From contig CAZIZE010000102.1 of NCBI GenBank assembly GCA_964543655.1, positions 1 through 55,050 of the forward strand: 55,050 nt of DNA, in the 5' to 3' direction. This stretch comes from an uncultured bacterium. Its GTDB lineage: Bacteria; DYJV01. The notes beneath the pieces are model-generated. The model was not told the DNA's origin. It did no database searches and saw only the letters and a list, made by a program, of their open reading frames with translations. Below are positions 33,000 to 55,050 of this stretch, in pieces (positions within the stretch are counted from its first letter, which is position 1; each line of letters begins with the position of its first letter). A program made the position numbers and the translations under genes.

Positions 33000-33140
33000 C
33001 TATTTACCTAAAATTGAATTAAAAATTTTATTAATACCTTTTTCAATTACCTTATCCACCTCTTTGTCAGCTCTATTTTTAATTTTATTTTCTGATTTTT
33101 TCTCTTTTTTTTGAATATAGCTCTCAACAGGTTTTTTCAT
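33000..33140 (-). CDS. putative 46-aa small protein or gene remnant
   Basis: ATG overlaps the cytochrome TGA (ATGA); MKKPVESYIQKKEKKSENKIKNRADKEVDKVIEKGINKIFNSILGK. Confidence 0.45.
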   Translation of the reverse strand: MKKPVESYIQKKEKKSENKIKNRADKEVDKVIEKGINKIFNSILGK

Positions 33141-38334: not shown

Positions 38335-39384
38335 TTATGACCTTTCCATTATCCATTTTGCAACTGTTGGAGCAAGCTCCTTTTGCGATCTTGAGCTAAC
38401 ATATATACCAATATGACCACCTTTAAATGATAGTAAAGTCTTATCTTTAGAACCAACAAGATCATTTAAAGGCTTAGTTGATGCTGGAGGCACAAGGTGA
38501 TCCTGCTCTGCATAAACAGTAAGAATAGGCATGGTAATTTTTTTAAGATTAACTTTTCTACCACCAAGTTTAAACTCTCCTTTAGCTAATTTGTTTTGCT
38601 GATAAAGTTCTTTGATAAATTTTCTAAAAGTTTCTCCTGCTTGATCAGGACTATCAAATATCCACTTTTCCATTCTTAAGAAATTTTTCAAATCTTCAAG
38701 CTGATTTGTGCTTTTTATAAAATTGTAATATTTCTCAAAGTTCAATTGAAATGGCTTTAACATCAGATAACCAATATTCATAAAATCACCAGAAATATTA
38801 CCATAAGCATCAACAAGCTTATCAACATCAATATATCTTGACCATACATTTAAGAGTCCATCATCAGTATCAAAATCTACAGGAGTAACCATTGTAACAA
38901 GATTTTTAATTTTTTCAGGATAGAGAGCAGAGTAAATTACTGAAAAAGTTCCACCCTGGCACACTCCAAGTAAATTAATTTTATCAAGTTTATGTTTCTC
39001 TCTAATATAATCAACACAATCATTAATATACCCATCTATATAATCTTCCATTGTTCTATATCTATCAGCTCTCTCTGGATAATCCCAATCAATAATATAA
39101 ATATCAAGACCATTTTCAAGGAGTTTGCTAATAAAACTTCTATCTTTTTGCAGATCCATCATATAGTATCTATTTACAAGAGCATAAACTATGAGTATAG
39201 GAGTAGGGCATTTTTTTCTTTTACTCTGTTTGTAATGATAAAGCTTAACATTGTCAAAGGTTGTTTCAAGCTCCTTAGGGCTTGGCTCTGTGTCAATTTC
39301 ATTTACCTCTTTTAACTGGTCAAAGATATTGTAAAGCTTATGATTTATATCAAAAAGGTCAGTCCAAAATTTTTCTCCTATCAT
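38335..39384 (-). CDS. phaC: class III PHA synthase catalytic subunit
   Basis: YALVNR, lipase-like box GVCQGG, RMEKWIFDSPD, DHLVP, GGHIG. Confidence 0.95.
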   Translation of the reverse strand: MIGEKFWTDLFDINHKLYNIFDQLKEVNEIDTEPSPKELETTFDNVKLYHYKQSKRKKCPTPILIVYALVNRYYMMDLQKDRSFISKLLENGLDIYIIDWDYPERADRYRTMEDYIDGYINDCVDYIREKHKLDKINLLGVCQGGTFSVIYSALYPEKIKNLVTMVTPVDFDTDDGLLNVWSRYIDVDKLVDAYGNISGDFMNIGYLMLKPFQLNFEKYYNFIKSTNQLEDLKNFLRMEKWIFDSPDQAGETFRKFIKELYQQNKLAKGEFKLGGRKVNLKKITMPILTVYAEQDHLVPPASTKPLNDLVGSKDKTLLSFKGGHIGIYVSSRSQKELAPTVAKWIMERS

Positions 39385-40313
39385 TTATTTTCCTCCCTTT
39401 TTTTACTAATTTTTGATTCTAATTCGTTGATTTTATTTTTCATATTTTTTAATTCTTTTTTTAATGTATAAATTTCTTTATATGCTCTGTCTAATTCAAA
39501 TTTAGTGGCAATATTTGATTCTTTTAAAATTTGATACGTATATTTATCAATTGAGGTTTTCAAATTAGTACCAGCTTTTAATAAATTGCCAAGTAATTCC
39601 CCATATTCTTTACTTTTAAAAAAGTCGTGAAAGATTTTTTCATTGGAATTAATCCATTTTTTGAAAAATTCGTCAAAATCGTTAAGCTGAGGCTGTTTTT
39701 TTATCTCTTCTAAGAATATTTCAAAACCTTTATTTGTTTGTTTGCTAATAACTTCCCTAAATTCTTCTACTTTTTTTGTATATTCCAAAAGGTTATTAAT
39801 AACTTCTTTAATTAAGTCATTTATTTCTCTTGTTAACCAGAAAGAGGGCATTTTTAGAAAAGTTTCAAACGTACCCAAATTATTACTATAAAAATTTTCA
39901 AAAAGTTTATTAAAGTCATTCAATTTTAAGGCATCCTGAATTGGTCCAAAAAGCTCTAATCCTGAGTATTGTTTGGTAAAATTTTCAAGAATTTTAGCAG
40001 GTGTAATCTCGTCTAATCCCATGATTTTTAAAATTATATTAGAATAATTATCTTGAAACGATGAGAAAAGTTTCTGAAAATTTGCAAAATTATAATTGTT
40101 TTCAGGTAGCATAAAAGATTTTTGAAAATTTTCATAAAAATTAAAGAAATCTTTGTAAATTTCAGAAGATTTACTCATTTTCAAAAAAGGATTAGCAACA
40201 TCCTGAGGTAGAAAAAAAGGATTAATATTGGTAGATGGTTCACTACTCTTTTGAAAAAAGTTTTGCCACATTTCAAACATCTTTTTTTGATTTTCCATTA
40301 AATTTTCAAACAT
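39381..40313 (-). CDS. phaE: class III PHA synthase subunit E
   Basis: ATGA overlap with phaC; PxxxLTRE, F..WI...E, ATKFELD followed by a coiled-coil tail. Confidence 0.85.
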   Translation of the reverse strand: MFENLMENQKKMFEMWQNFFQKSSEPSTNINPFFLPQDVANPFLKMSKSSEIYKDFFNFYENFQKSFMLPENNYNFANFQKLFSSFQDNYSNIILKIMGLDEITPAKILENFTKQYSGLELFGPIQDALKLNDFNKLFENFYSNNLGTFETFLKMPSFWLTREINDLIKEVINNLLEYTKKVEEFREVISKQTNKGFEIFLEEIKKQPQLNDFDEFFKKWINSNEKIFHDFFKSKEYGELLGNLLKAGTNLKTSIDKYTYQILKESNIATKFELDRAYKEIYTLKKELKNMKNKINELESKISKKREENK

Positions 40314-40324
40314 TTTTACCCTCC

Positions 40325-41083
40325 TTAAATTCTTAAACCTCCATCAACTTCTATTGTTCTGCCGGTTATATAGTCATTTTCTATTATAAATTGCAATGTT
40401 TTGGAAATTTCCTCTTTTTTACCAAATCTTCTAAGAGGTATCATTTTTATAATTTTATCTTTAATATTATCTGAAATTGCTTCTGTCATCTCTGTTTCTA
40501 CATAGCCAGGAGCTATTGCAACAACTCTAATGCCAAATCTACTAAGTTCTTTTGCCCAGGTAACAGTCATTGCAGAAACACCAGCCTTTGTTGCAGTATA
40601 ATTTGTCTGTCCCATATTTCCATGCCTGGATATTGAAGACATTGAAATAATAATCCCTCTTTTTTCATATTTCACCATTTGATACGCTGCTTCTCTTGTG
40701 CATAAAAAAACACCAGTTAGGTTAACATTAATAACATTTTGCCAATCTTTAAGAGGAAATTTAAATATATTTTTTTCATCTTTTTTTATTAATAAATTAT
40801 CTTTTGTAATTCCTGCATTATTAACACTAATATCAATTCCATTATACTTTTGCGAAACAGTAGAGTACAAATTCACCACACTATCTTCATTGGTTACATC
40901 AGTTTCAAAAATATCAATATTGAGATTATCTTTTGCAAATTCTTTTTTTACAGCAACAAGATTGTCATAATTAAGATCACAAATAACAACTTTTGCTCCT
41001 TTTAATGCAAGATCATGAGCAAACTGTTTACCAATTCCCCTTGCACCACCTGTTATCACTGCAACTTTATCTTTTATTTCCAA
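40325..41083 (-). CDS. SDR 3-ketoacyl(-CoA) reductase, probable PhaB function
   Basis: TGGARGIG, NNAG, GQTNYTATK; TTG start after SD GAAGGAGG; first gene of the PHA cluster. Confidence 0.88.
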   Translation of the reverse strand: MEIKDKVAVITGGARGIGKQFAHDLALKGAKVVICDLNYDNLVAVKKEFAKDNLNIDIFETDVTNEDSVVNLYSTVSQKYNGIDISVNNAGITKDNLLIKKDEKNIFKFPLKDWQNVINVNLTGVFLCTREAAYQMVKYEKRGIIISMSSISRHGNMGQTNYTATKAGVSAMTVTWAKELSRFGIRVVAIAPGYVETEMTEAISDNIKDKIIKMIPLRRFGKKEEISKTLQFIIENDYITGRTIEVDGGLRI

Positions 41084-42819: not shown

Positions 42820-42932
42820 CAATTCCTCCAGAAAAAAGTTTCAATCTTTTAAACATAGAATGGAAGAAAAGTCAATTAGTGGATTATCATTATAACAATT
42901 CCACATTACCAGAGCTGAGTTTCATTTTTAAT

Positions 42933-42961
42933 AAAAAAAGCAGGCAAAAGCCTGCTTTTTT
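42933..42961 (-). terminator. intrinsic terminator of the Rieske/cytochrome b/octaheme operon
   Basis: AAAAAAGCAGGC-aaaa-GCCTGCTTTTTT. Confidence 0.92.
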
Positions 42962-42965
42962 AGTA

Positions 42966-44579
42966 TTAATGAGGTGCATCCATTAAATTTGGAGATGGAA
43001 GTTTCAAATTAATAGCTTTTTTGAGACTTACACCATCTTTTTTAAGTCTTTCTTTGTATGCTTTATATACTGGATGTTCTGGGAATTTAGTACCAAGATA
43101 GTAATCTTTGTTTTTATATCTTTTCATCCAGAGATCCCATTCATCTTTTGTTAAAAATCCTTGTTTATAAAGTTCTTCTACATTAGCTTTTACCATTTCC
43201 CAGTAATTAGGTACAAGTTTATAAGCTACTGGGCTTCTATATTTTTCAACACCAATACTCCACTCATTACCAGGAACATCATAAATTTTGTATGGGAAGA
43301 ATTTCAAAGGATCTGTGCTTTCTACGATTTTTTTAGCTTCTTCATCACCATGCTCTGCAGCATAGGTTATAATTTCCTGTAAATTATGTTGCATTTCCCA
43401 TACACCATGCCATTGAGTATAATCAGCAGCCATCATCTCAGCTCCCATTCTGAACCTTCTACCTTCGTGATGCCAATCATTATACATTAAATGTTCAGGT
43501 TTTTCATCCCAACCATTTATAACAGGATTTGAGTAAAATTTACCCTTATATTCAAGTCTGTGTAAAATACCTTCTTTGGTCATTTTCTTTGTCCAGTAAA
43601 CATTAGCTCTTCTCATTTCATTATATTGGAAATTAACAAGATCAAATGTTAAGAAATACATATCAACAAAGCTTCTTGCGTGGCAATTATAACATATGTT
43701 TTTCATTCTCTTTCTTTTATCCTTCCATGTACCAAGTTTTTCTTCAAACCATACAGTTCTAAATGACCATGGAGCCTGTGATTCAGTTGCAAGTCGTGCA
43801 CTTACATTATGTGTAGGTTTCACACCTGGTGCTCCATCCATATGACATGTTGTACAAACAGGAGCTGGAATTGGTATAGGTTTTTCATCACTACTTCTAT
43901 AAGAAAGATTCCATTTTGCACCTTCTGCTTTAAAAATATTACCATGTTTAGATTCAATATATTCTTCAATATGAGGATGATCAGGACCCACATGACATTC
44001 ACCACATGTTTCTGGCTGTCTTGCTACTCTTATGCTAAATGTATGTTTTGGATGACAAATATCACATTCACCTACACTGCCGTCAGGCCAAAAAGTAGTT
44101 AAGTTATGACATTCTTCACAACCATGCTTTGTGCCTATAATAGGCTCAAATACAGATCTATCTGCGTTTTTATATTGCCAGAAAGGAAAAGCATGTTTAC
44201 TTTCTGTGTATTCCTGCACTTGCTGCTTATGACATTTTGCGCAATCATTAGGAGTTGGATGTTTACCAATAATTATACTGGAACCTGGGCAGGTAAAAGC
44301 ATCAAAATCACTCTTTTTAGCTTCATGACATTTAATACAATCAATACCTTTTTCAGCATGAAGACTTGCTTCCCAGTGATCGATTACTTTAGGAGCAACA
44401 CCTTTTCTTTTATGACATTCAATACATTGTTTACTAACATCTCCTACATGAACTTTATGCGGTTCAACTCCCATTTTTTTTGCAAATCTTACAGACTCAT
44501 TTTTGGCAACTAAAAGAAGTGCAGCAAGAAAAAATATAGAAACTATAAAAACCAGCCATTTTTTTGCTTTTAAATCCAT
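42966..44579 (-). CDS. octaheme cytochrome c, hydroxylamine oxidoreductase (HAO)-like
   Basis: N-terminal anchor, eight CxxCH (CIECH, CIKCH, CAKCH, CEECH, CDICH, CGECH, CTTCH, CYNCH), GPDH...Y..SKHG, WHHEGRR.RMG. Confidence 0.9.
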   Translation of the reverse strand: MDLKAKKWLVFIVSIFFLAALLLVAKNESVRFAKKMGVEPHKVHVGDVSKQCIECHKRKGVAPKVIDHWEASLHAEKGIDCIKCHEAKKSDFDAFTCPGSSIIIGKHPTPNDCAKCHKQQVQEYTESKHAFPFWQYKNADRSVFEPIIGTKHGCEECHNLTTFWPDGSVGECDICHPKHTFSIRVARQPETCGECHVGPDHPHIEEYIESKHGNIFKAEGAKWNLSYRSSDEKPIPIPAPVCTTCHMDGAPGVKPTHNVSARLATESQAPWSFRTVWFEEKLGTWKDKRKRMKNICYNCHARSFVDMYFLTFDLVNFQYNEMRRANVYWTKKMTKEGILHRLEYKGKFYSNPVINGWDEKPEHLMYNDWHHEGRRFRMGAEMMAADYTQWHGVWEMQHNLQEIITYAAEHGDEEAKKIVESTDPLKFFPYKIYDVPGNEWSIGVEKYRSPVAYKLVPNYWEMVKANVEELYKQGFLTKDEWDLWMKRYKNKDYYLGTKFPEHPVYKAYKERLKKDGVSLKKAINLKLPSPNLMDAPH

Positions 44580-44603
44580 AATTACCTCCTTTCTATATAT
44601 ATT

Positions 44604-45611
44604 TTATGCTGATTCTAAAATCATTAATATGGTAATAATAATCATACCTGCTAATCCTATCAATACTGGCAATGACTCTGATTTGAATGTTTTTACAAGC
44701 CAGCTATCAACAAATGGCCAGAAAAAGAACAAGCCTATTACAAGAACAGGCACATATAGTCCTATCCATTGTGAGGTTAATTTTATCCATTTAAACATTG
44801 GATAAAAATACCATTCAGGCTTAATATGAAGAGGCGTAACAAGAGGATTAGCCTTGACTCCTGGTTCTAAAGGAAAAACAATAGCAAGAATAGTCATGAA
44901 AAAAAGAAGCATTAAACCAATTATAACCTCTGTCATAATATGATCAGGGTAAAATTTGTAGGTTTTGCCTCCTCCATTTAATTCACTAACACCTACTTTT
45001 CTTAAAATCACTATGTGGATAAAAATTAATATTCCAATAACAGCTGGGACTATTGCTCCATGAAGAATCAAAAATCTGCTAAGTGTAAATTTATTAAATG
45101 AATCACCTGCAATTAACAATTTTCGAAGAAGAGGACCGATAATTGCAATTTTCCCTGCTAAATTTGTACCTGCTGTAACAGCCCAATAAGATTTTTGAGT
45201 GTATAGCAATGAATATCCTGTAAATCCTGCAAAAAGGGTCATAAGTAGCAATAAAACCCCTGTCATCCATACATATTCTCTTGGTTTTGTATATGCTCTG
45301 GTGAAAAAAACTCTAATAATGTGTAATGATACTGTTACTACCATTAATTCAGCTGACCATTTATGAATTGCTCTAATCCACCAGCCAAATCTTATATTAT
45401 TGGTGATGTAATTTACACTTTCATATGCTCCGTCAATTGTGGCAGAGTAATTCATTGCAAGAAGGATCCCTGTAACAATTAATATTATAAAGAGAATAGC
45501 TGGTACTCCGCCAAGGCACCACCACCATATTTTCATATGTTCTGGCAGATCTTCATCAAGAACTACTGACTTGAATTTCTCCCATGTACTCATATTTTGA
45601 GCATTAATCAT
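44604..45611 (-). CDS. cytochrome b of a Rieske/cytochrome b complex (b6-like, fused to subunit IV)
   Basis: WWCLGG, two His pairs, GFTGYSL, KPEWYF. Confidence 0.93.
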   Translation of the reverse strand: MINAQNMSTWEKFKSVVLDEDLPEHMKIWWWCLGGVPAILFIILIVTGILLAMNYSATIDGAYESVNYITNNIRFGWWIRAIHKWSAELMVVTVSLHIIRVFFTRAYTKPREYVWMTGVLLLLMTLFAGFTGYSLLYTQKSYWAVTAGTNLAGKIAIIGPLLRKLLIAGDSFNKFTLSRFLILHGAIVPAVIGILIFIHIVILRKVGVSELNGGGKTYKFYPDHIMTEVIIGLMLLFFMTILAIVFPLEPGVKANPLVTPLHIKPEWYFYPMFKWIKLTSQWIGLYVPVLVIGLFFFWPFVDSWLVKTFKSESLPVLIGLAGMIIITILMILESA

Positions 45612-45627
45612 ATTGTATTCACCTCCT

Positions 45628-46080
45628 TTACACTATTAAAGTGACAAAAACATAGTTATCCTTTACCTCAACCTTAAACTGATCAAGAGGACGAGGTGGA
45701 GGACCTGCAATGTTTTTTCCATTTGCATCAAATTTACCTAAGTGACATGGACAGAAAAAGATATTTTCTTCTGGTTTCCATTCTACTTCACATCCAAGAT
45801 GAGTGCAAATTTTAGAAAAAGCTTTGATTTTACCATTTTGATTTACTAACAGTGCTTTTCTGCCTTGGCCATCAAGAAATTCTTTTGCTTCTCCAGGCTT
45901 AATTTCGTTGACTTTAGCCATAAGAACTTTGATTTCTTTTTTCTTTTTAGATGGTGGCACAAGGTACTTGAAGCCATAAACAGCAGAGGTAACGCCAACT
46001 GCTGCAATGCCAATGCCTGCGGCAAAATTAGACATAAAATCTCGTCTTGATAAATCTTCTTTTTTTTCTTCATCAGCCAT
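45628..46080 (-). CDS. Tat-anchored Rieske [2Fe-2S] protein
   Basis: SRRDFM, CTHLGC, CPCH, GPPPRPL; SD AAGGAGGTG before the ATG at 46080. Confidence 0.95.
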   Translation of the reverse strand: MADEEKKEDLSRRDFMSNFAAGIGIAAVGVTSAVYGFKYLVPPSKKKKEIKVLMAKVNEIKPGEAKEFLDGQGRKALLVNQNGKIKAFSKICTHLGCEVEWKPEENIFFCPCHLGKFDANGKNIAGPPPRPLDQFKVEVKDNYVFVTLIV

Positions 46081-46119
46081 TTTATACACCTCCTTTGCTT
46101 TAAAATTTTTGGAATTAAT

Positions 46120-46187
46120 ATTATATACATCTAATAGAAGTAAATTTGGGGTTAAAATGTGTAAATATTCTGTAAAGGTTTTGTAAA
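46120..46187 (-). promoter_or_regulatory. activator direct-repeat array plus -10 box of the Rieske operon
   Basis: minus-strand TTTACA at 46187, 46176, 46165 (11-bp period), TTAACC, TTTACT, then TATAAT at 46125-46120. Confidence 0.8.
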
Positions 46188-46261
46188 TTTATTTTTTGCA
46201 ATTGACTTAATAAAAACTTTTGTTTATTTTTATAATAATTAAGAAAAATGGGGAGGATTTG

Positions 46262-46846
46262 ATGAAAATAAGATTTATTTTTTTGATGTTTTTTTTATCA
46301 ATAATTATGAGTTTAAGTTTTCTTTATGCGTCAGTAGCCAAAAAAGAAGATAAAAGCAATAAGTTATCAGTAAAATCTAATGATAAAATTATTGTAGCAA
46401 AAATTGATAATTTAAATATTACGTATCAGGATTATCTTGATTTTCTTGATTTATTCAATAAAAAACCATCTACCAATGAAGAAAAATTAAAAATGTTAAA
46501 TCATTTAATAGAAAGGACTTTAATTATAGAAGATGCAAAAGAAAAAGGTTATTTTGGTAGAAAAACAATGAAAGAAAATATAAAAAAACATCGTTTTTTG
46601 GAAAAAAAAGATAACTCATATCAAACAACCATTATATTAAGACAATACTTTATTGAAAATATCTCAAAAAAGGTTAATGTTACAACTTTAGACATTGATA
46701 ATTATGTAAAAAAACATAAAAATATTGATAGAGCAACTGCAAGAGATTATATTGCTCTTGAAAAAGAGAAAAAATTATATAAAAAACTTATTGAAAAATT
46801 AAAAAAAGGTAAAAAAATAATAGTTTATAAAGAAAATTTAAAATGA
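46262..46846 (+). CDS. exported SurA/PrsA N-terminal-domain-like chaperone
   Basis: signal peptide, IVAKIDNLNIT, LNHLIERTLIIEDAKEKG, LKKGKKI; no parvulin domain. Confidence 0.7.
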   Translation: MKIRFIFLMFFLSIIMSLSFLYASVAKKEDKSNKLSVKSNDKIIVAKIDNLNITYQDYLDFLDLFNKKPSTNEEKLKMLNHLIERTLIIEDAKEKGYFGRKTMKENIKKHRFLEKKDNSYQTTIILRQYFIENISKKVNVTTLDIDNYVKKHKNIDRATARDYIALEKEKKLYKKLIEKLKKGKKIIVYKENLK

Positions 46847-47180
46847 TACAATATACAAGTGCAGGGTTCAACATTAGTCTTAGTCGATAGAGATTGTAAT
46901 TTATGGTTATTCGTAGTTATTAAAAACCACTAAATCCTAACAACTATATCCTAAATCCCAACTATACAAAACCAACCTTGAAGCAAGAGATTTTACGGGA
47001 TAGAGCCCTTAGGATAGTTTACAGTTATCAGTTCAAAATTCAAGGTTCAAATTTTATGTTATTTCAAATGAAAAAGCATATTATTGGCAAATATAAAGCC
47101 TTTTAAAAACTTTATATCGTATTTTAAATTTGTTTTTGTATTAAATCTTAATTTCTAATTACAAAATTCTAATTTCTTTT

Positions 47181-47247
47181 TTTACAAAAACTTTACAAAA
47201 AAGTTACACCATATTTACAGCAAATTTACTTAATTATAATGTATAAT
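47181..47247 (+). promoter_or_regulatory. activator direct-repeat array plus -10 box of the molybdoenzyme operon
   Basis: TTTACA 47181, TTTACA 47192, GTTACA 47203, TTTACA 47214, TTTACT 47225, TATAAT 47235 and 47242. Confidence 0.85.
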
Positions 47248-47291
47248 ATATACAATAATTTCTCATCATTATATTTATAAGGAGGAGGGGA

Positions 47292-50200
47292 ATGTCAGGA
47301 AACAGTAAAAAAATTACAAGACGTAAGTTTTTAGGCTCAGTTGCTGGTGGATTAGCAGGACTTACCACATTACCTCTTATTGCAAAAGATCTTAAAATGG
47401 GTAAGTTTGTTGGAGGGAAATTGCATAAGGTTAGCGAGGATAAGCTGAGAAAAGTTTTTGACTATGACAAAGTTATTAGAAGTGTTTGTTCCGCAAATTG
47501 TACTCAGGCATGTGGTTGGAATGCTTTTGTAAAGGGAGACAAGTATATTGTAGAGATTACTCCTGCTGCAGACTATGATACTTATGATAAAGTTATGGGT
47601 AAGTACTATAATCCAAGAGGATGTTTGAGAGGAGCAAGTTATCTCAGGTATGTTTATGGAGATATGAGATTGAAACATCCATTGATCAGAGTGGGAAAAA
47701 GAGGTGAAGGGAAGTTCAGAAGAGCTACTTGGGAAGAGGCAATAGACTTAATATCTAAAAAATTTACTGATATTGCAAGAAAACATGGTTCAGATGAGAT
47801 TGTATTTTTCTCTGCAATACCAGCTTATAGTTATGTTTCTGCAGGAGCAGGATACAGACTTTGCAAAATTATGGGAGCAAGTGGTCCTCTTAGTTTTTAT
47901 GACTGGTACTGTGATTTGCCTCCAGGTGAACCTATGACATGGAGTGTGCAGACTGAAGAAAGCGAAGAAGCTGATTGGAAAAATGCAAAGCTACTGATTT
48001 TCTGGGGTGCCAATGTTGCTGAATCACGTCTTGCAGCAGCCCATTTATTGCAAGAGGCAAAATATAGAGGCACAAAAGTTTATACTATTATGACAGATTA
48101 TAATGCTACTGCAAGAATGGGAGATGTTTTTATTTCTCCAAAACCTGGCACTGATGCTGCTTTTGTAAATGGAGTTATTAATTATCTTATATCAAATCAC
48201 AGTTTTGATCATGATTATGTAAAAACTTTTACAGATCTACCTTTTATTATAAGAAAAGACAATGGAAAATTCTTAACTGAAGCTGATGTAAAGTCTGGAG
48301 GCAATGCATTTAAACTGTTTGTTTTTGATAATAATTCTAATAAGTTTGTTATGCCTCCTGGAACTCTCGGAGACAACAGAGATACTCTTGATTTGAAAAA
48401 ATATAATATAGATCCTTCTCTTTTTTATGAAGGAGAAGTTACTTTAAAAAATGGCAAAAAAGTAAAAGTTGAAACTGTTTTTAATAAGTTAAGAAAAGAA
48501 GTTTCAAAATTTACTCCTGGAAAAGTTTTTCAAATAACAGGTATTGGAGAGCAAACATTAAAACAATTTGCCCTTGATTTAGTTACTAAAAAACCAGCAA
48601 TGATTATTGGTGGTGGCGGAGTAAATCACTGGTTTAACAATGATATTAACAATCGTTCCATGATTCTTATGCTTGCACTTACTGGAAATGTAGGTAAAAC
48701 AGGCTCAGGATTTAGTCAATATACAGGTCAATATAAAGTATGGTTAAGTGGGCTTGGAAAATATGGAATGATACTTAAAGCAAGACCACAAAATGCTACC
48801 TTATTTGTATGGTCTCATTATGATGCAGAATTATATAAACTTGGTAAAACATATCCTGAATTAGTAAAAGATATAGAAACAGGTAAGTTGAAAAGGCTCC
48901 CAAATGGATTGCCTGTTAGCGCCAACAAAGAGGATGGTTGGGCATACAACTATTATTTACTTTTAAAATCCTTATCAAAAAAATGGATTCCTGTATATCC
49001 TAAGCCACCAAAGAGACCAAGAGCAATGATGATTTGGAGATCCAATTTTCTTAATCAAGGCAAGGGTGGATATAATACATTAAAATGGTTTGAAAATCCT
49101 GATAAGTTGGAATTTACTGTAACAATAGATTTTAGAATTAACTCAACAGCACTTTATTGCGATGTGGTGCTTCCTGCTGCAACCTGGTATGAAAAATTTG
49201 ATATAGAAACTACACCGATGCATGTTTACTTACAGGCATTTAACCCTGTTATTAAACCTTTATATGAATCTAAAACAGACTATGAAATTTTCAAATTAAT
49301 TGCAAAAGGCATACAAAATTATTCTCATAAATTAGTTGCAACAGGCAGGTGGGATGGAAAATGGAAAGATACAGAGAAAAAGCAAGTTATTGATTTTACT
49401 AAGGTATACAATGTGTTTACCGCAGGCGGCAAAATGGATACTGACGTTAAATCTGCAAAATTTATTTTGACTAAAAGCCCTATAATTTATCCTGATCCTG
49501 ATGAATATAGAATGAACAAAAAGAACTATGTGCCTGAACTTCAGAAAATAATAGAAAACAATCTGTTTAAAGGAGATGTAAAAGGATATATTGATGGCAT
49601 AGTAAAGTTGATTAGAAAAGCTCCTGTTCCATTTCCAGCTGCTCAGAGCAGAAGACCTCTTACACCATTTGTTGAAAATGTTGACAAAATGCTCCCATGG
49701 CCAGGAGGAGGAAAGCTTGCAAAAGAAAAAATTACAATTGGAGGTAAAGTAAAGGTTCCCAAATTTTTTGGTAAAAAATATCTTGGAATGATAGGGTCAA
49801 AAACATTAACAGGAAGACAACAGTTTTATATTGATCATTCATATTTTTTAGATTTAAATAATGAATTACCAATATATAAAGAGCCTGAATTTGATAGATT
49901 ACCAGATAAGAAAACCAAAGCACCTTTAAAATTAAATACACCACATGGTAGATGGGGAACTCATTCAACATTTAGAGATGTGGATATTCTTTTAAGACTC
50001 CAGAGAGGAGAGACAATTGCATTAATGAGCAAGGCAGATGCAATGAAAAGGGGAATAAAAGATGGAGATAAAATTAAAATATTCAATGAGTTTGGTGAAA
50101 TGATTTGTAGAGCAAAAGTTATGGCAGGAATAAAAGAAGGTGAAGTTAGAGTTGCAAATGGAGCTGAGATGTTCACCACAATTAAAGGATGGTTTAATGG

Positions 50201-50348
50201 TATTACTCCAATTAGACCTAAACCTACCCAATCAGTAAAATATCCTGAAGTTAAAGCACCATCTTATCACTTAAAATATGGATGGAATTTTTGGGGTGTT
50301 ACAGGTAATGAATGTGACACATCAGTTGAAATAAAAAAGATTATGTAA
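47292..50348 (+). CDS. Tat-exported type II DMSO-reductase-family molybdoenzyme alpha subunit (periplasmic NarG/PcrA-like)
   Basis: TRRKFL, CSANCTQAC...NPRGC, SFYDWYCDLPP, DVVLPAATWYEK, TLTGRQQFYIDH, TPHGRWGTHS. Confidence 0.93.
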   Translation: MSGNSKKITRRKFLGSVAGGLAGLTTLPLIAKDLKMGKFVGGKLHKVSEDKLRKVFDYDKVIRSVCSANCTQACGWNAFVKGDKYIVEITPAADYDTYDKVMGKYYNPRGCLRGASYLRYVYGDMRLKHPLIRVGKRGEGKFRRATWEEAIDLISKKFTDIARKHGSDEIVFFSAIPAYSYVSAGAGYRLCKIMGASGPLSFYDWYCDLPPGEPMTWSVQTEESEEADWKNAKLLIFWGANVAESRLAAAHLLQEAKYRGTKVYTIMTDYNATARMGDVFISPKPGTDAAFVNGVINYLISNHSFDHDYVKTFTDLPFIIRKDNGKFLTEADVKSGGNAFKLFVFDNNSNKFVMPPGTLGDNRDTLDLKKYNIDPSLFYEGEVTLKNGKKVKVETVFNKLRKEVSKFTPGKVFQITGIGEQTLKQFALDLVTKKPAMIIGGGGVNHWFNNDINNRSMILMLALTGNVGKTGSGFSQYTGQYKVWLSGLGKYGMILKARPQNATLFVWSHYDAELYKLGKTYPELVKDIETGKLKRLPNGLPVSANKEDGWAYNYYLLLKSLSKKWIPVYPKPPKRPRAMMIWRSNFLNQGKGGYNTLKWFENPDKLEFTVTIDFRINSTALYCDVVLPAATWYEKFDIETTPMHVYLQAFNPVIKPLYESKTDYEIFKLIAKGIQNYSHKLVATGRWDGKWKDTEKKQVIDFTKVYNVFTAGGKMDTDVKSAKFILTKSPIIYPDPDEYRMNKKNYVPELQKIIENNLFKGDVKGYIDGIVKLIRKAPVPFPAAQSRRPLTPFVENVDKMLPWPGGGKLAKEKITIGGKVKVPKFFGKKYLGMIGSKTLTGRQQFYIDHSYFLDLNNELPIYKEPEFDRLPDKKTKAPLKLNTPHGRWGTHSTFRDVDILLRLQRGETIALMSKADAMKRGIKDGDKIKIFNEFGEMICRAKVMAGIKEGEVRVANGAEMFTTIKGWFNGITPIRPKPTQSVKYPEVKAPSYHLKYGWNFWGVTGNECDTSVEIKKIM

Positions 50349-50371
50349 AATATTAATTTTAGGAGGTTATC

Positions 50372-51289
50372 ATGTATGGTATGGTGATAGATTTAAATAA
50401 ATGTCTTGGTTGTCAAGCATGCAGTATTGCATGTAAAATGTTATGGAGCAACAGAGACGGTGCGCAACATATGTGGTTTACCATTGTGGAAACTCGTCCA
50501 GGTCAGGGATATCCTTATAACTGGCTTGAGAAAACAAAGAAAAAAGCAGGTATGGATGATAAAGATTATGAAAATGTTCCTAAATTTGATTATAGTAAAC
50601 TTCATAATAATCCTGGAAAAGGATTGCCTAATATTGGGATAAATCTTAAAAATGGTCCCAATTACTATGAGGACATGGGTAGAGGTAAGAATGTTAATGA
50701 TGAATGGTTTTTTTATTTGCCAATGATATGTATGCATTGTGAGGATCCTGCATGTATGAAAGCATGTCCTGCAAAAGCAATATACAAAACCAGAGAAGGT
50801 TTTGTGCTTATTGATAGCGAAAAGTGTGAAGGTGCTGGAGAATGTATTGATGCATGTCCATACAAAAGAATATTTTTTAATAAAAATATGGATAAAGCTG
50901 AAAAATGCATATTTTGTTTTCCTCGTCTTGAAAAAGGCGAGCCCCCAGCTTGCGTTATTACATGTCCGGGAAAAGCAAGATTTTTTGGTAAATTAAATGA
51001 CAAAGACTCTCCTGTTTATAAACTTGTTAAAAAATATAAAGTTGCTGTTCCTCTGCTGTCAGAATTTAATACTAAACCTAAAGTTTTTTATATTCCTCCT
51101 GTTATGGTGGCTGAAAATAAAATTGATGATAAAGGGAACAGTTCTGGTGAAAGAATAGATTATACTTATCTTGAAGAACTTTTTGGAAAGAAAGTTAAAG
51201 AAATCAAAAAAATTCTTGATAATGAAAGAAATAAATCTCATTCTGAATTAATTGATGTATTAACAGGCTTTCCAACATGGAAGCTTTAA
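50372..51289 (+). CDS. Fe-S beta subunit (NarH/PcrB-like, 3x[4Fe-4S] + 1x[3Fe-4S])
   Basis: CLGCQACSIAC, CMHCEDPACMKACP, CEGAGECIDACP, CIFC...C...CP, WFFYLP. Confidence 0.93.
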   Translation: MYGMVIDLNKCLGCQACSIACKMLWSNRDGAQHMWFTIVETRPGQGYPYNWLEKTKKKAGMDDKDYENVPKFDYSKLHNNPGKGLPNIGINLKNGPNYYEDMGRGKNVNDEWFFYLPMICMHCEDPACMKACPAKAIYKTREGFVLIDSEKCEGAGECIDACPYKRIFFNKNMDKAEKCIFCFPRLEKGEPPACVITCPGKARFFGKLNDKDSPVYKLVKKYKVAVPLLSEFNTKPKVFYIPPVMVAENKIDDKGNSSGERIDYTYLEELFGKKVKEIKKILDNERNKSHSELIDVLTGFPTWKL

Positions 51290-51299
51290 ATTAATTTTG

Positions 51300-51327
51300 A
51301 AGGGCGTATCTATACGCCCTTTTTTTT
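51300..51327 (+). terminator. intrinsic terminator between the beta subunit and chaperone genes
   Basis: AAGGGCGTAT-ct-ATACGCCCTT followed by a T run. Confidence 0.9.
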
Positions 51328-51348
51328 ATAAAGCTTAAGGAGCTAACA

Positions 51349-51882
51349 ATGGAGGATAAAATTATTGGTTACAAACTTTTGTCAATGGCTATAAGTTATC
51401 CTGAAAAAGAAATAGCAGAAGCAATAGATACAGGTTGGTTATTCACAAATTTAAAAGAGGTTTTTAATAATTTAAATAATAAAAAGAATTTAAATTTAAT
51501 TGATAATCTTGAAGATGAATATACCTCTATTGAAGATCTTCAGGTAATTTATACATCTATTTTTGATTTAAAAATTCCACTTTATGAATCTCATTATGTT
51601 GTAAAAAGTGATAAACCTGAAGATAGAGCTAAATTTTTGCTTTTACTTGAAAAATTATATCTTGAAGAAGGAGTTGCCCTTGCAGACAGAGATATGCCAG
51701 ATTATCTTCCAACAGAACTTGAATTTGCTCATTATTTAAGTTCTGAAAAAAAACTTGAAAAATTGAAATATTTTGAAAATACTCATTTAAAAAATTGGCT
51801 CCCTGAATTAAATAAAAAGATTGAGAAAGAAGATATAAAATTTTATAAAAATATTCTTAAAATTATACAAAATTTTGTATAA
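51349..51882 (+). CDS. TorD/NarJ-family molybdoenzyme maturation chaperone
   Basis: YTSIFD, PLYESHY, MPDYLPTELEF, HLKNW. Confidence 0.88.
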   Translation: MEDKIIGYKLLSMAISYPEKEIAEAIDTGWLFTNLKEVFNNLNNKKNLNLIDNLEDEYTSIEDLQVIYTSIFDLKIPLYESHYVVKSDKPEDRAKFLLLLEKLYLEEGVALADRDMPDYLPTELEFAHYLSSEKKLEKLKYFENTHLKNWLPELNKKIEKEDIKFYKNILKIIQNFV

Positions 51883-51900
51883 ATTATTTTTGATTATAAT

Positions 51901-51929
51901 TTGACATTTTAAAAAAAATACTCTAAATT
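51901..51929 (+). promoter_or_regulatory. sigma70 promoter of the two-component operon, probably leaderless
   Basis: TTGACA-17 nt-TAAATT, with the ATG 7 nt downstream and no SD. Confidence 0.65.
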
Positions 51930-51935
51930 TTTTTT

Positions 51936-53525
51936 ATGCAAGCATTAAAAAATTTTTGTTTTTCCCTTAGTTTTAAATACCTGATTGGTATTATTACTGT
52001 TCTTTCAATTATTTTAGGTGGAATATTTTATATTTTTTTTAAACAAGAGAAAAAATTTTTATACGAAGAAGTTTATAAACAAGCTGAAATTTTAATTGAT
52101 CAAATAATCCTTACAAGAAAATGGGTTGCTGATGTAGGAGGCATTTATGTTTTAAAGAGAAAAGGATTATATATCAATCCATATTTGAATAAACCTTTTG
52201 TAAAATGTGGGGATAAAACTTTTTTAAAAAGAAATCCAGCAATGGTCACACGGGAGTTATCAAATTATGCTTTTAAAAATGGAAAATATTTTTTTAAATT
52301 ATCAAGTAATTTTCTAATTAATCCTGCTAATGCCCCTGATGAAACGGAAAGTTATGCATTAAGAGTTTTTGACAGAAAAAAAGCAAAAGAAATAGTTGAG
52401 GTAGAATTTTTAATGCATAAAAAATTTTACAGACTAATTAGACCTCTTTATATTAAAAAATCTTGTTTAACCTGTCATATGTATCAAGGATACAATATTG
52501 GAGAGTTAAGAGGTTGTATAAGTGTATTACTACCTTTAACTGATGTTGATAAAAAATTGTGTATCATGAAAAAATATTATTTTTTTTCATATTTAATTAT
52601 AATATTTTTTACAATTTTAATCATTTATCTTTTAAATTATTTTCTTGTTATTAAACCTGTGAATATTATTAAAGAAAACATAGAAAAATTTGAAAAAAAT
52701 TATTTAACTGATTTTAAAAAATCTTCAAGAAAAGATGAGATTGGGGATTTAAAAAATAAATTTTTTAATATGGCAAACATAATTAAAAATAATCATGAAA
52801 TAATGCAAAAAGAGATTGAAAAAGCTACTGAAGAATTAAAAAGAAAAGATAAATTAAAAACAGATTTTCTTGCTACAGTTTCTCATGAATTAAGAACTCC
52901 TCTCACTACAATACAAGGTGGAATTGAATATCTTTCCAAAGTGCTTACAAAAAAAGAAAATAAAGAATTTATTGAGATTATAGACAAAAATATTAAAAAT
53001 TTGATTTTAATGGTTAATAACCTTATAGATATAGCTCGCATTGAAATAGGCAAATTAGAGCTTGACTTAAAAGAGGAAAATCTTAAAGAAATTATTGAGG
53101 AAATTCTTATTTTTTTCAAAGGATATTCTGATGAAAAAAATATAAAATTTGAAAAAATAAATTTTGAAAAAGATTATTATGTTTATGTTGATAGAAAGAG
53201 AATTAATCAGGTGTTAATTAATATTTTGCATAATGCAATAAAATTTTCTCCAAGAGATGATAAAATAACTATATCAATTAATGAAACAGAAAATAATATT
53301 AAGTTATCAATTATAAACAATACTGAACATAAAATAGATGAAAAAAATATTTCAACTTTTTTCTTAAAATATAAACATCTTAAATCATCCAAAGAAAAAG
53401 GAAGCGGACTTGGCCTTGCAATTGCCAAAGGCATTATGCTTGCCCACAAAGGTAATATAACTGTTGAGTTAATTAATGAAAAAAAAGTAAAATTTACAAT
53501 TTTTTTTAATAAAAATTTTGCCTGA
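51936..53525 (+). CDS. sensor histidine kinase with a periplasmic heme c (DUF3365/Tll0287-like) domain
   Basis: NPAMVTRELS, NPANAPD, CLTCH, GELRG, HAMP DEIG, SHELRTPL, NAIKF, GSGLGL. Confidence 0.92.
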   Translation: MQALKNFCFSLSFKYLIGIITVLSIILGGIFYIFFKQEKKFLYEEVYKQAEILIDQIILTRKWVADVGGIYVLKRKGLYINPYLNKPFVKCGDKTFLKRNPAMVTRELSNYAFKNGKYFFKLSSNFLINPANAPDETESYALRVFDRKKAKEIVEVEFLMHKKFYRLIRPLYIKKSCLTCHMYQGYNIGELRGCISVLLPLTDVDKKLCIMKKYYFFSYLIIIFFTILIIYLLNYFLVIKPVNIIKENIEKFEKNYLTDFKKSSRKDEIGDLKNKFFNMANIIKNNHEIMQKEIEKATEELKRKDKLKTDFLATVSHELRTPLTTIQGGIEYLSKVLTKKENKEFIEIIDKNIKNLILMVNNLIDIARIEIGKLELDLKEENLKEIIEEILIFFKGYSDEKNIKFEKINFEKDYYVYVDRKRINQVLINILHNAIKFSPRDDKITISINETENNIKLSIINNTEHKIDEKNISTFFLKYKHLKSSKEKGSGLGLAIAKGIMLAHKGNITVELINEKKVKFTIFFNKNFA

Positions 53526-53539
53526 GAAAGAGGCGAAAA

Positions 53540-54226
53540 ATGGAAGAAAATAAAATCCTTGTTTTAATAATTGATGATGATGAAGATATACTTAAAGTTA
53601 TTTCAGCAAATTTAAAACTTGAAGGTTATGATATTATAACTGCGCAAACAGGAGTTGATGCTTATGATTTAATATCAGGTGCTGAGCCTGATATTATTAT
53701 TCTTGATCTTAATCTTCCTGATATGGATGGAATTCAATTATGCAATAAAATAAGAAAGGAAAATATTGATATTCCTGTAATTATGCTCACTGCAAGGGAT
53801 ACAGTTTCTGATAAAGTTTTGGGGCTTGAATGTGGTGCTGATGATTATATTGTGAAACCATTTAATTTTCTTGAGCTTGCAGCAAGGATAAAGAGCTGCT
53901 TGAGAAGATATAGTGATTCAAATATTGGTAAAAAAGGTAAAATAACATTAGATAGAGTTACAATTTATCCTGAAAAAAGAGAAGTGTATATTGATGATGT
54001 TGTTCCAGTAAATTTGACGAGAACTGAGTATAATCTTTTGCTATTTCTAATTAATAATAGAAACAAAGTTTGCTCAAGAAAAGAGATAAAGAATAATTTG
54101 TGGAAAGAGAAAGATATTTATAATTGGTCAAGAACAATTGATGTGCATATTAATCATTTAAGAAAAAAATTAGGTGACTTTATTAATATAGAAACTATTT
54201 CAGGTATTGGCTATATTTTAAAATAA
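53540..54226 (+). CDS. OmpR/PhoB family response regulator
   Basis: IIDDD, LDLNLPDMDG, GADDYIVKPF, LTRTEY, SRTIDVHINHLRKK. Confidence 0.95.
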   Translation: MEENKILVLIIDDDEDILKVISANLKLEGYDIITAQTGVDAYDLISGAEPDIIILDLNLPDMDGIQLCNKIRKENIDIPVIMLTARDTVSDKVLGLECGADDYIVKPFNFLELAARIKSCLRRYSDSNIGKKGKITLDRVTIYPEKREVYIDDVVPVNLTRTEYNLLLFLINNRNKVCSRKEIKNNLWKEKDIYNWSRTIDVHINHLRKKLGDFINIETISGIGYILK

Positions 54227-54254
54227 AAAAAGCAGGCCTTTTGGCCTGCTTTTT
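54225..54254. terminator. bidirectional intrinsic terminator
   Basis: AAAAAGCAGGCC-tttt-GGCCTGCTTTTT between convergent genes. Confidence 0.92.
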
Positions 54255-54261
54255 AAATATG

Positions 54262-55050
54262 TTAGAAATCAAGCTGTCTTCTATCTTCCATATCAAAGAG
54301 TTTTCTTTCAACCTGTCCAGCAATACCAAGTTTTTCTCTTTGCTTGTCAATGTGAGCAATCATTTTCTGTGCCATTTCATAAGGATCAGCAGCAAAATCC
54401 CATTTACCAAGACCCCATTCAGATTCAAGACCTTCCATAAGTAGTTTATGGAATTTAGTGCCTTCAATACTTGGGAAGGAAACACCAAAAATAGTGTAAA
54501 CTCCTGATGATACAAAATAGTGGCCAATTGATATAGCTTTTTCACTCATCCATTCTGGTGCAGCACCTGCTGCTGGTAAATCTGCAATTGATTCACCAAG
54601 TCCACCAATTCTAACCATCTCTGTAGCTGCAATTAAAATTCTTGAATTGTCAACACAAGAACCAACATTTAATACAGGTGGCATACCAACTGCTTCACAA
54701 ACTTCTTTCAATCCTGGACCACAGAGATCTTTAGCTGATGGATCCATAAGTCCTGCTTTAGCAAGAGAAATTGCAGAACAACCAGTTTGTAATACAAGTA
54801 CATCATTTTTAATAAGTTCTTTAACAAGCTCAACATGAACCCAGTCATGCTTAACTCTTGGATTGGTACAACCAACAACTCCTGCAACTCCTCTAATTCT
54901 TCCATTAATAATATTATCATTTAATGGTTGATATGTGCTTCTGAAACTACCACCAAGCATATAATTTACATATTCGTGAGAAATACCATGAATTCCAAGC
55001 TTTTTATTTTTAGGAATTTCAATTTTAGCTTTTCTACCATTTTTAAATCT
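54262..55050 (-). CDS. cooS: anaerobic Ni-Fe carbon monoxide dehydrogenase catalytic subunit, 3' part (runs off the window)
   Basis: GRIRGVAGVVGCTNP, TGC, GSCVDNSR, APEWMSEKA; frame stays open to the window end. Confidence 0.95.
   Translation of the reverse strand, partial: RFKNGRKAKIEIPKNKKLGIHGISHEYVNYMLGGSFRSTYQPLNDNIINGRIRGVAGVVGCTNPRVKHDWVHVELVKELIKNDVLVLQTGCSAISLAKAGLMDPSAKDLCGPGLKEVCEAVGMPPVLNVGSCVDNSRILIAATEMVRIGGLGESIADLPAAGAAPEWMSEKAISIGHYFVSSGVYTIFGVSFPSIEGTKFHKLLMEGLESEWGLGKWDFAADPYEMAQKMIAHIDKQREKLGIAGQVERKLFDMEDRRQLDF

Follow-up and report, generated by a model that had tools for sequence, protein, structure and literature searches.

Respiratory gene clusters related to the one described here are already known, in a Nap version from Caldithrix and as a Rieske/cytochrome b-linked periplasmic Nar from haloarchaea. 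Caldithrix abyssi has a nap-Rieske/cytochrome b-epsilonHao cluster (Cabys_2564-2556), for which the authors propose a flow of electrons from quinol through Rieske/cytochrome b to the octaheme cytochrome, reducing nitrite to ammonium (Kublanov et al., 2017, PMC5317091). In haloarchaea, the periplasmic NarGH is accompanied by a Rieske protein (NarB), a cytochrome b (NarC), and a gamma-like protein (Orf7), and the Nar of Methanoperedens has a proposed Rieske/cytochrome b complex (PMC4683180). Nitrite reduction by Hao-type cytochromes encoded beside nap has also been proposed for nitrate ammonifiers without NrfA (PMC5317091, PMC6896113, PMC5276818), and "Hao-enabled ammonification" for Deferribacter, Thermosulfurimonas, and Nautilia (PMC6896113, PMC5276818). 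The window analyzed here is a 55-kb stretch of DNA from an uncultured hydrothermal-vent bacterium (genome G000, 94% complete), in which nine genes fill a respiratory span (42930-54254) with no further gene inside. What is new in it is a gamma-less, Nar-like enzyme of an unstudied clade in one operon with Rieske, cytochrome b, and an octaheme of the hydroxylamine oxidoreductase (HAO) type. On balance, this module is probably a co-regulated periplasmic nitrate-reducing system, most likely one that carries the reduction through to ammonium.

The nine genes are genuine and were read correctly, and the gene calls and families given in an earlier note on this DNA hold (Table 1). The order of Rieske, cytochrome b, and HAO-type octaheme beside a periplasmic nitrate reductase is the one described for Caldithrix (PMC5317091), many metagenome loci share this layout, and homologues named as Calditrichia share 57-59% identity with the window octaheme. 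Since the Nap variant was already published there, the idea is less new than it first seemed. Caldithrix encodes NapA with NapM, NapG, and NapH, whereas the window encodes a NarGH-like type II enzyme with a NarJ-like delta subunit and no NapM or NapGH; pNar-type (periplasmic Nar) alpha, beta, and delta genes stand where napMADGH would be. The window shares with the haloarchaeal pNar an alpha subunit that is NarG-like, has an Asp ligand, and is exported by the twin-arginine translocation (Tat) pathway, a NarH-like beta, and Rieske and cytochrome b genes (a cytochrome b gene lies upstream in the haloarchaeal locus L016). However, haloarchaeal alpha is 37% identical to that of the window, and the haloarchaeal and Methanoperedens systems have a gamma-like heme-b protein or pentaheme cytochromes, not an HAO-type octaheme. 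Like the epsilon-Hao systems of Campylobacterota and the Hao-enabled systems, the window has an HAO-family octaheme beside nitrate reductase genes and no NrfA; those systems have Nap with donors that are NapC/NrfH-type or unknown, whereas the window has Rieske/cytochrome b. In the full-text literature, exclusive of subscription journals and supplements, no description was found of a Nar-type enzyme clustered with Rieske, cytochrome b, and an HAO-type octaheme.

The two operons of the window were expected by the earlier note to co-occur in other genomes, and they do, often as one colinear operon; the link between them is not chance. Locus L005 lies in genome G041, which belongs to a phylum other than that of the host, and relatives of alpha were sought in 301 genomes sampled from this phylum. 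The alpha clade occurs in nine of these genomes, and eight loci were fetched besides L005; a contig scan with the alpha alignment keyed on the generic FYDWYCD motif and returned mostly canonical NarG, with L005 as the only close relative. An HAO-type octaheme gene adjoins alpha in L005 and in all seven of the eight fetched loci in which alpha is at least 55% identical to that of the window, while the eighth (L186) has an alpha of 37% identity and no octaheme open reading frame (ORF) was seen there. In L181 and L183, Rieske, cytochrome b, octaheme, chaperone, alpha, beta, and delta follow one another on one strand, with the kinase (and regulator) alongside. The same order is found in L005 up to beta, where the contig ends, with a gap of only 60 bp between chaperone and alpha, and in L180 the order is alpha, beta, delta, regulator, Rieske, cytochrome b, octaheme. 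The next gene after delta in L183 encodes an Hcp hydroxylamine reductase (835.8 bits). In L185 (G119:C43; alpha 55% identical), an NrfH-like tetraheme cytochrome and another HAO-type octaheme (464 aa, 31% identity) replace Rieske/cytochrome b; this locus also encodes a 158-aa His-rich membrane protein between beta and a delta-like gene. Within the order of the host, alpha and octaheme are both present in 2/2 genomes of its genus and both missing from the four others, and the window alpha shares 84% identity with its counterpart in a genome outside the host phylum. This patchy presence and the high identity across phyla suggest that the genes may have been transferred as a unit.

From the octaheme side, 80 metagenome loci were surveyed, 24 of them with at least 8 kb on both flanks. 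An octaheme ORF was found in 77 loci, cytochrome b in 51, Rieske in 45, a NapA-like gene in 36, and a pNar alpha in three; 20 of the 24 full-flank loci carry NapA, and the remaining four carry neither NapA nor pNar alpha. NapA, NapG, and NapH were confirmed in representatives of the Nap-type loci. No NapA-like match was obtained in any of ten pNar-type genomes (the host plus nine others, E <= 1e-60), and in a quick tree of the octaheme the pNar-linked rows fall into two neighboring clades without any Nap-linked row. The Nar-like enzyme and Nap are alternatives beside the same octaheme family. The molybdoenzyme therefore occupies the place of Nap beside the octaheme, which is the main argument for nitrate as its substrate. 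The nitrate-to-ammonium idea of the earlier note fits the octaheme-NapA pairing, the lack of NapA in pNar-type genomes, and the published proposals, but its substrate is only inferred. Its description of the module as self-contained was too strong: in L089 and L095, with full 10-kb flanks, kinase, regulator, Rieske, cytochrome b, octaheme, and chaperone genes stand together with no molybdoenzyme within 10 kb. As a separate observation, L073, from a metagenome-assembled genome (MAG) of the Deltaproteobacteria, has an Hcp-like gene, a tetraheme gene, and an HAO-type octaheme gene (30% identity), immediately followed by genes for NarG of the cytoplasmic type, NarH, and a probable NarI.

Alpha and beta belong to an unnamed clade of the type II dimethyl sulfoxide reductase family (the Nar/Nxr/Pcr/Ebd group). 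Their best-scoring NCBIfam models are TIGR03479 for alpha (714.1 bits, cut-off 984.75) and TIGR03478 for beta (330.7 bits, cut-off 480.7), and neither subunit reaches the curated cut-off. Alpha scores 438 bits with narG (cut-off 1084), and delta scores 52.9 bits with TIGR03482 and 46.5 bits with narJ, both below cut-off. The 15 Cys residues of beta, in groups of 4, 4, 3, and 4, are all invariant in the beta family alignment, a pattern that fits three [4Fe-4S] clusters and one [3Fe-4S] cluster. The Mo-ligand motif of alpha, FYDWYCD208LPP, is that of NarG. The motif of its iron-sulfur cluster FS0 is all-Cys (C66-x3-C70-x3-C74 ... C111), whereas the first FS0 ligand is His in canonical NarG, haloarchaeal pNarG, a sister clade of 37-43% identity, and PcrA. 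Position 481 is Tyr in alpha; the aligned residue is Glu in the Nar types (canonical NarG, haloarchaeal pNarG, and the sister clade, in the motif H-Y-V-G-Q-E) and the gate residue Trp461 in PcrA. Alpha thus departs from NarG and pNarG in its narG equivalog score, its FS0 ligand, and the missing Glu. Close relatives of alpha (50-93% identity) are few, the named ones including those from Ammonifex degensii, Syntrophomonas erecta, Korarchaeota, Methanodesulfokora, and Pyrodictium. The sister clade comprises Ignavibacteria and Acidobacteriota MAGs (L007, L009) and further bacterial MAGs (L006, L010). In L006, L009, and L010, a weak EB_dh-like protein is kept and a hexaheme cytochrome follows Rieske and cytochrome b. 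The operon of L006 and L009 consists of a GltD-like NAD(P)H oxidoreductase with FeS clusters, Rieske, a long cytochrome b, a membrane-anchored hexaheme cytochrome, alpha, beta, the weak EB_dh-like protein, and a chaperone; its GltD-like gene is reminiscent of the NAD(P)H-oxidoreductase subunit found in the Rieske/cytochrome b complexes of anammox bacteria.

Among solved structures, alpha scores best with the perchlorate reductase subunit PcrA (4ydd, 516 bits), followed by NarG (393 bits), EbdA (257 bits), and Kuenenia NxrA (7b04, 193 bits). PcrAB (4ydd, 5e7o) is also a periplasmic type II enzyme with an aromatic gate residue at 461. The substrate of the molybdoenzyme might then be (per)chlorate, selenate, or another oxyanion, with the octaheme as a relay or a detoxifier of by-products, and the aromatic Tyr481 and the scores of alpha below every Nar cut-off would agree with this. 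A Nar-like enzyme of a thermophilic archaeon is also said to reduce perchlorate without chlorite dismutase, which counts in the same direction. However, a search of the 94%-complete genome for chlorite dismutase gave no match, and the Mo ligand lies in YCDLPP, as in NarG, and not in YGDHPT, as in PcrA. The tie of the octaheme family to NapA (36 of the 80 loci), the Hcp gene beside the operon in L183, and the lack of NapA-like genes from all ten pNar-type genomes also speak against another oxyanion. This alternative is clearly unlikely, and alpha, by analogy with the NapA of the other loci, is likely a nitrate reductase.

The octaheme has eight CxxCH motifs and matches PF13447 (73 bits) and related families. 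Its best solved relatives are IhOCC (4qo5, E 7.5e-26), the Kuenenia HAO-like protein 6h5l (E 1.1e-18), and HAO itself (1fgj, E 2.5e-15), which makes it a distant member of the HAO family. Asp200-His201 of the octaheme align with Asp267-His268 of HAO (1fgj) and do not vary across the octaheme family alignment; we take this pair to have a catalytic role on the distal side of the catalytic heme of HAO. Because the pair matches and is invariant in the family, the octaheme looks like an enzyme, more than a wire. The second-ranking 6h5l also has the Asp-His pair, although its similarity is low and its pathway is another. The Kuenenia complexes R/b-2 and R/b-3 are reportedly anammox Rieske/cytochrome b complexes with an HAO-like octaheme subunit and no molybdoenzyme in their operons.

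Such anammox complexes raise the question of direction. The system might run oxidatively, with alpha/beta as a nitrite oxidoreductase or another dehydrogenase and the octaheme as an oxidizer of hydroxylamine or hydrazine, passing electrons to quinone as in nitrifiers and anammox bacteria. The type II enzymes do include Nxr (7b04), the best NCBIfam match of the octaheme, a weak one, is hydrazine dehydrogenase (65 bits, cut-off 900), and HAO-like proteins are said to be joined to Rieske/cytochrome b complexes in anammox bacteria. The cross-link tyrosine is present in oxidizing HAO and absent from reductive family members; the HMMER alignments of the octaheme to HAO stop before this region. Against the oxidative direction, a Rieske/cytochrome b complex normally moves electrons from quinol to cytochrome c, and an anaerobic CO dehydrogenase gene adjoins the cluster in the host. 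Close octaheme relatives also lie in nap clusters of nitrate ammonifiers (PMC5317091). Oxidative running is very improbable.

The Rieske protein and cytochrome b have the features of a b6-type quinol oxidase, with Rieske boxes, four heme-b His, PEWY, and a CLGG Cys. In the Rieske protein, RRDF lies at 15, CTHLGC at 95, and CPCH at 113. In cytochrome b, 13 residues separate His83 from His97 and 14 separate His184 from His199, while the CLGG Cys is at 32 and PEWY at 265; the 13/14 spacing and the CLGG Cys are presumably b6 and heme-ci features. Cytochrome b scores 185.6 bits with cytochrome b6 and 196 bits with ExtP (cut-off 290), both below cut-off. No mono- or diheme cytochrome c1, f, or c subunit is encoded in the operon, where the octaheme is the sole cytochrome c gene. 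The length of the N-terminal hydrophobic run of the octaheme does not separate cytochrome b-linked from cytochrome b-less forms; by eye only, cytochrome b-less octahemes have an N-terminal helix that ends in classical signal-peptidase sites.

How alpha/beta receives electrons was considered from the genes available in the genome. The operon encodes no heme-b gamma subunit, and an EB_dh search of the 94%-complete genome gave no match; the single NarI-like match lies within a 640-aa frame on another contig (C9). No NapA-like gene was found in the window or in the 94%-complete genome, and no NrfA match above cut-off in the latter. A NapC/NirT-type multiheme cytochrome of 345 aa is encoded on contig C73. 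The absences claimed in the earlier note therefore extend genome-wide for an EB_dh gamma subunit and over-cut-off NrfA, but not for a NapC/NirT-type cytochrome. The nine genes of the span include no nitrate transporter, for which no genome-wide search was made. The host genome also contains an Hcp-like gene on contig C40.

With these genes at hand, the two operons might encode adjacent but electrically separate systems, in which Rieske/cytochrome b/octaheme is a self-sufficient quinol:nitrite reductase and alpha/beta is fed by the C73 cytochrome or a soluble carrier, the pathway still leading from nitrate to ammonium. The loci in which the octaheme module stands alone (L089, L095), the NapA of Nap-type loci with its own NapM and NapGH, and the presence of the 345-aa NapC/NirT-family protein favor such a separation. 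However, the colinear pNar operons have no other cytochrome c or quinol dehydrogenase from Rieske to delta, no gamma subunit was found in the genome, and the C73 gene lies beside a Rex-like gene and not beside any reductase. We consider electrical separation unlikely. In the co-regulated nitrate-reducing system that we favor, the octaheme probably feeds alpha/beta, because the operon offers no other donor; that the transfer goes directly from octaheme to beta is a tentative proposal, which we would sooner doubt than assert.

The secreted 197-aa protein has no Pfam family, even at E 0.1. A structure model built on 20 homologues (predicted local distance difference test score, pLDDT, 85.4) retrieved the SurA chaperone core in a fold search (8pz2_F, E 3.5e-4, template modeling scores 0.49/0.59), as well as PrsA and Campylobacter PEB4/Cj1289, and the protein is thus predicted to be a SurA-core-like chaperone lacking the peptidyl-prolyl isomerase (PPIase) domain. 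The earlier note had grouped its gene with the molybdoenzyme; the gene goes with the octaheme instead. Homologues were found in 23 of the 80 octaheme loci, among them Nap-type loci and loci without any molybdoenzyme, and where gene order was read, also in Nap-type loci, the homologue lies directly 3' of the octaheme gene. In Deferribacter, hao is followed by the gene for a small protein, exported or membrane-bound and without known function, which is possibly the counterpart of this SurA-like protein. Some loci without Rieske/cytochrome b (L135, L137-L139, L146-L148) have an octaheme gene, then a SurA-like gene, then a second octaheme gene (31-34% identical), which in L147 and L148 is followed by a NapC-like tetraheme, a NapM-like tetraheme, and NapA.

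Both operons carry similar repeat arrays. The 55 kb contain three copies of the pattern TTTACA-N5-TTTACA where 0.14 would be expected, and none of 100 shuffles reached three. Array A sits in the gap that the Rieske operon shares with the chaperone gene, upstream of both, at distances of 71 bp from the Rieske start and 66 bp from the chaperone gene. Array B ends 62 bp before the alpha start. The same repeat stands before both operons, in line with the earlier note, but in two arrays of inverted orientation and not in one shared array. In the host genome, arrays of at least three TTTACA units were found only at A, B, and one other site. This third array (TTTTTTACAAT x3), at C13:2314-2340 (L168), precedes the gene for the small subunit of a [NiFe] hydrogenase by 84-110 bp, in opposite orientation, and it may be a regulon member or a mere tandem repeat. 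In other loci, TTTAC[AC] occurs four times with a spacing of 10-11 bp upstream of Rieske (L005, L090, L092, L093), with TTAACA-type variants of the array in L089, L091, and L095. Both arrays recur in the same-genus genome, where a similar one stands before alpha. The colinear relatives have a single array for their single operon; in the window, the Rieske, cytochrome b, and octaheme block looks to have been inverted and the candidate operator duplicated. The arrays show the pattern expected of an OmpR/PhoB-type operator and are candidates for one.

The two genes at the end of the plus-strand unit have the parts of a two-component system, the kinase with HisKA and HATPase domains and the regulator with a receiver and a winged helix, next to arrays of direct repeats at about 11 bp. 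The kinase has a Tll0287-like domain between two hydrophobic segments and a single CxxCH (CLTCH at 177), and is probably a periplasmic heme-c sensor; homologous kinases with a single CxxCH occur in Nap-type and pNar-type loci. The hairpin between beta and delta may cause partial termination, and expression of kinase and regulator may then be lower than that of alpha and beta. Within the 445-bp gap before alpha lies a dispersed repeat with 52 other blastn matches across the contigs of the genome. Its depth in three metagenome runs is 143-523 against about 8 elsewhere, many loose ends occur there, and unitig contigs break at it; it is not part of the respiratory system. A molybdenum cofactor (Moco) riboswitch was considered for 45900-47400, and an Rfam search of that stretch gave no match. 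A sigma-70 promoter scan of this AT-rich DNA found 12 sites against 10.5 expected.

Taken as a nitrate-reducing system, the module would work as follows. Menaquinol would be oxidized by the b6-type Rieske/cytochrome b complex, as expected from knowledge of the family, and electrons would pass to the octaheme encoded directly downstream, which would be the heme acceptor of this complex, judging by the position of its gene and by the fact that the operon encodes no second cytochrome c. With the Asp-His pair of the HAO pocket kept, the octaheme would reduce nitrite (and hydroxylamine) in the manner of epsilon-Hao. The Tat-exported alpha/beta enzyme, without gamma and in the usual place of NapA, would be the nitrate reductase that makes this nitrite, and would receive its electrons from the octaheme, which is the weakest step. 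The SurA-core-like chaperone would serve the octaheme and the NarJ-like delta would serve alpha, while the heme-c kinase and OmpR-type regulator probably activate both operons through the TTTACA arrays. A Q cycle would conserve the energy, and the cell could do without a transporter for nitrate or nitrite. A bolder version, possible but doubtful, gives the octaheme a dual role, as the cytochrome c subunit of the Rieske/cytochrome b6 complex and as a replacement for the gamma subunit in this all-Cys-FS0 clade of Nar-like enzymes. Complex and enzyme would together form one membrane-bound, Q-cycle-coupled assembly for the eight-electron reduction of nitrate by way of nitrite to ammonium, with no need for Nap, Nrf, NarI, or a transporter, and this assembly would have passed as a whole from one phylum of vent thermophiles to another.

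Several points weigh against the proposed system. The whole proposal rests on the sequence of an uncultured organism. Alpha lies below every curated NCBIfam cut-off and its nearest solved relative is a perchlorate reductase, not NarG; Cys66 and Tyr481 set it apart from Nar enzymes, nitrate being suggested by context only. The C73 cytochrome, encoded elsewhere in the genome, could be the donor to alpha/beta instead. The octaheme module can stand alone, and the octaheme of Nap-type loci need not be a relay, NapA having its own NapM and NapGH there. In the same-genus genome, alpha and octaheme are on two contigs. The N-terminal helix of the octaheme may be a membrane anchor or a cleaved signal peptide, its residues being compatible with either.

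Table 1. Features of the respiratory span, with positions in the window.
Feature	Position	Strand	Evidence
Octaheme cytochrome c, HAO family, 537 aa, N-terminal hydrophobic helix	42966-44579	-	eight CxxCH, PF13447
Cytochrome b, b6 type with fused subunit IV, 335 aa	44604-45611	-	PF00033 + PF00032
Rieske [2Fe-2S] protein, Tat motif and membrane anchor	45628-46089	-	PF00355, SRRDF, CTHLGC, CPCH
Array A, three TTTACA units, 11-bp spacing; candidate OmpR-type operator	46160-46187	-	repeat search
Predicted secreted SurA-core-like chaperone, no PPIase domain, 197 aa	46253-46846	+	model and fold search
Dispersed repeat, about 80 bp	46963-47043		blastn
Array B, five units (TTTACA, TTTACA, GTTACA, TTTACA, TTTAC), 11-bp spacing	47181-47229	+	
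Molybdopterin alpha subunit, Tat-exported, 1018 aa	47292-50348	+	TRRKFLG Tat motif, TIGR03479
Iron-sulfur beta subunit, 305 aa, 15 Cys	50372-51289	+	TIGR03478
Terminator-like hairpin with T run, between beta and delta	51299-51322	+	10 pairs, 5 G-C
NarJ/TorD-family assembly chaperone (delta)	51349-51882	+	PF02613
Sensor histidine kinase, Tll0287-like domain	51936-53525	+	PF11845, HisKA, HATPase_c
OmpR/PhoB-family response regulator	53540-54226	+	PF00072 + PF00486
Bidirectional terminator-like hairpin closing the plus-strand unit	54227-54254	.	12 pairs, 6 G-C

Other genes of the window lie on both sides of the span. A 696-aa multiheme c-type cytochrome is encoded at 33137-35227 (minus strand), with ExtM as its best model (372 bits, cut-off 800). 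ExtM is a component of the Geobacter selenite/tellurite-reduction operon, and the window cytochrome b likewise scores best on ExtP of the same operon. Genes for a class III polyhydroxyalkanoate (PHA) synthase PhaC (497.7 bits, above cut-off), a PhaE-like protein, and a 3-ketoacyl reductase occupy 38335-41083 (minus strand), and a further PhaC-like gene (619 aa) lies at 35882-37741. On the other side, 54262-55050 (minus strand) encodes the C-terminal part of the anaerobic CO dehydrogenase (CooS/prismane family, 193.6 bits), which continues past the window end; contig C51 probably carries the remainder of this gene.

NrfA is missing from many thermophiles that ammonify nitrate, and their route to ammonium has been argued from genomes alone. 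The occurrence of a second, independent type of nitrate reductase in one operon with Rieske, cytochrome b, and octaheme strengthens the case for this module as a quinol:nitrite reductase and suggests that dissimilatory nitrate reduction to ammonium may be coupled to a Q cycle. Surveys that use NarG or NapA markers with curated cut-offs would miss the alpha clade, because alpha falls under every one of them. The proteins of the locus make a compact and testable set: the Nar-like enzyme that lacks gamma and has two unusual residues at the active site or a cluster, the octaheme and its SurA-like helper, and a putative heme-c sensor with its candidate operator.

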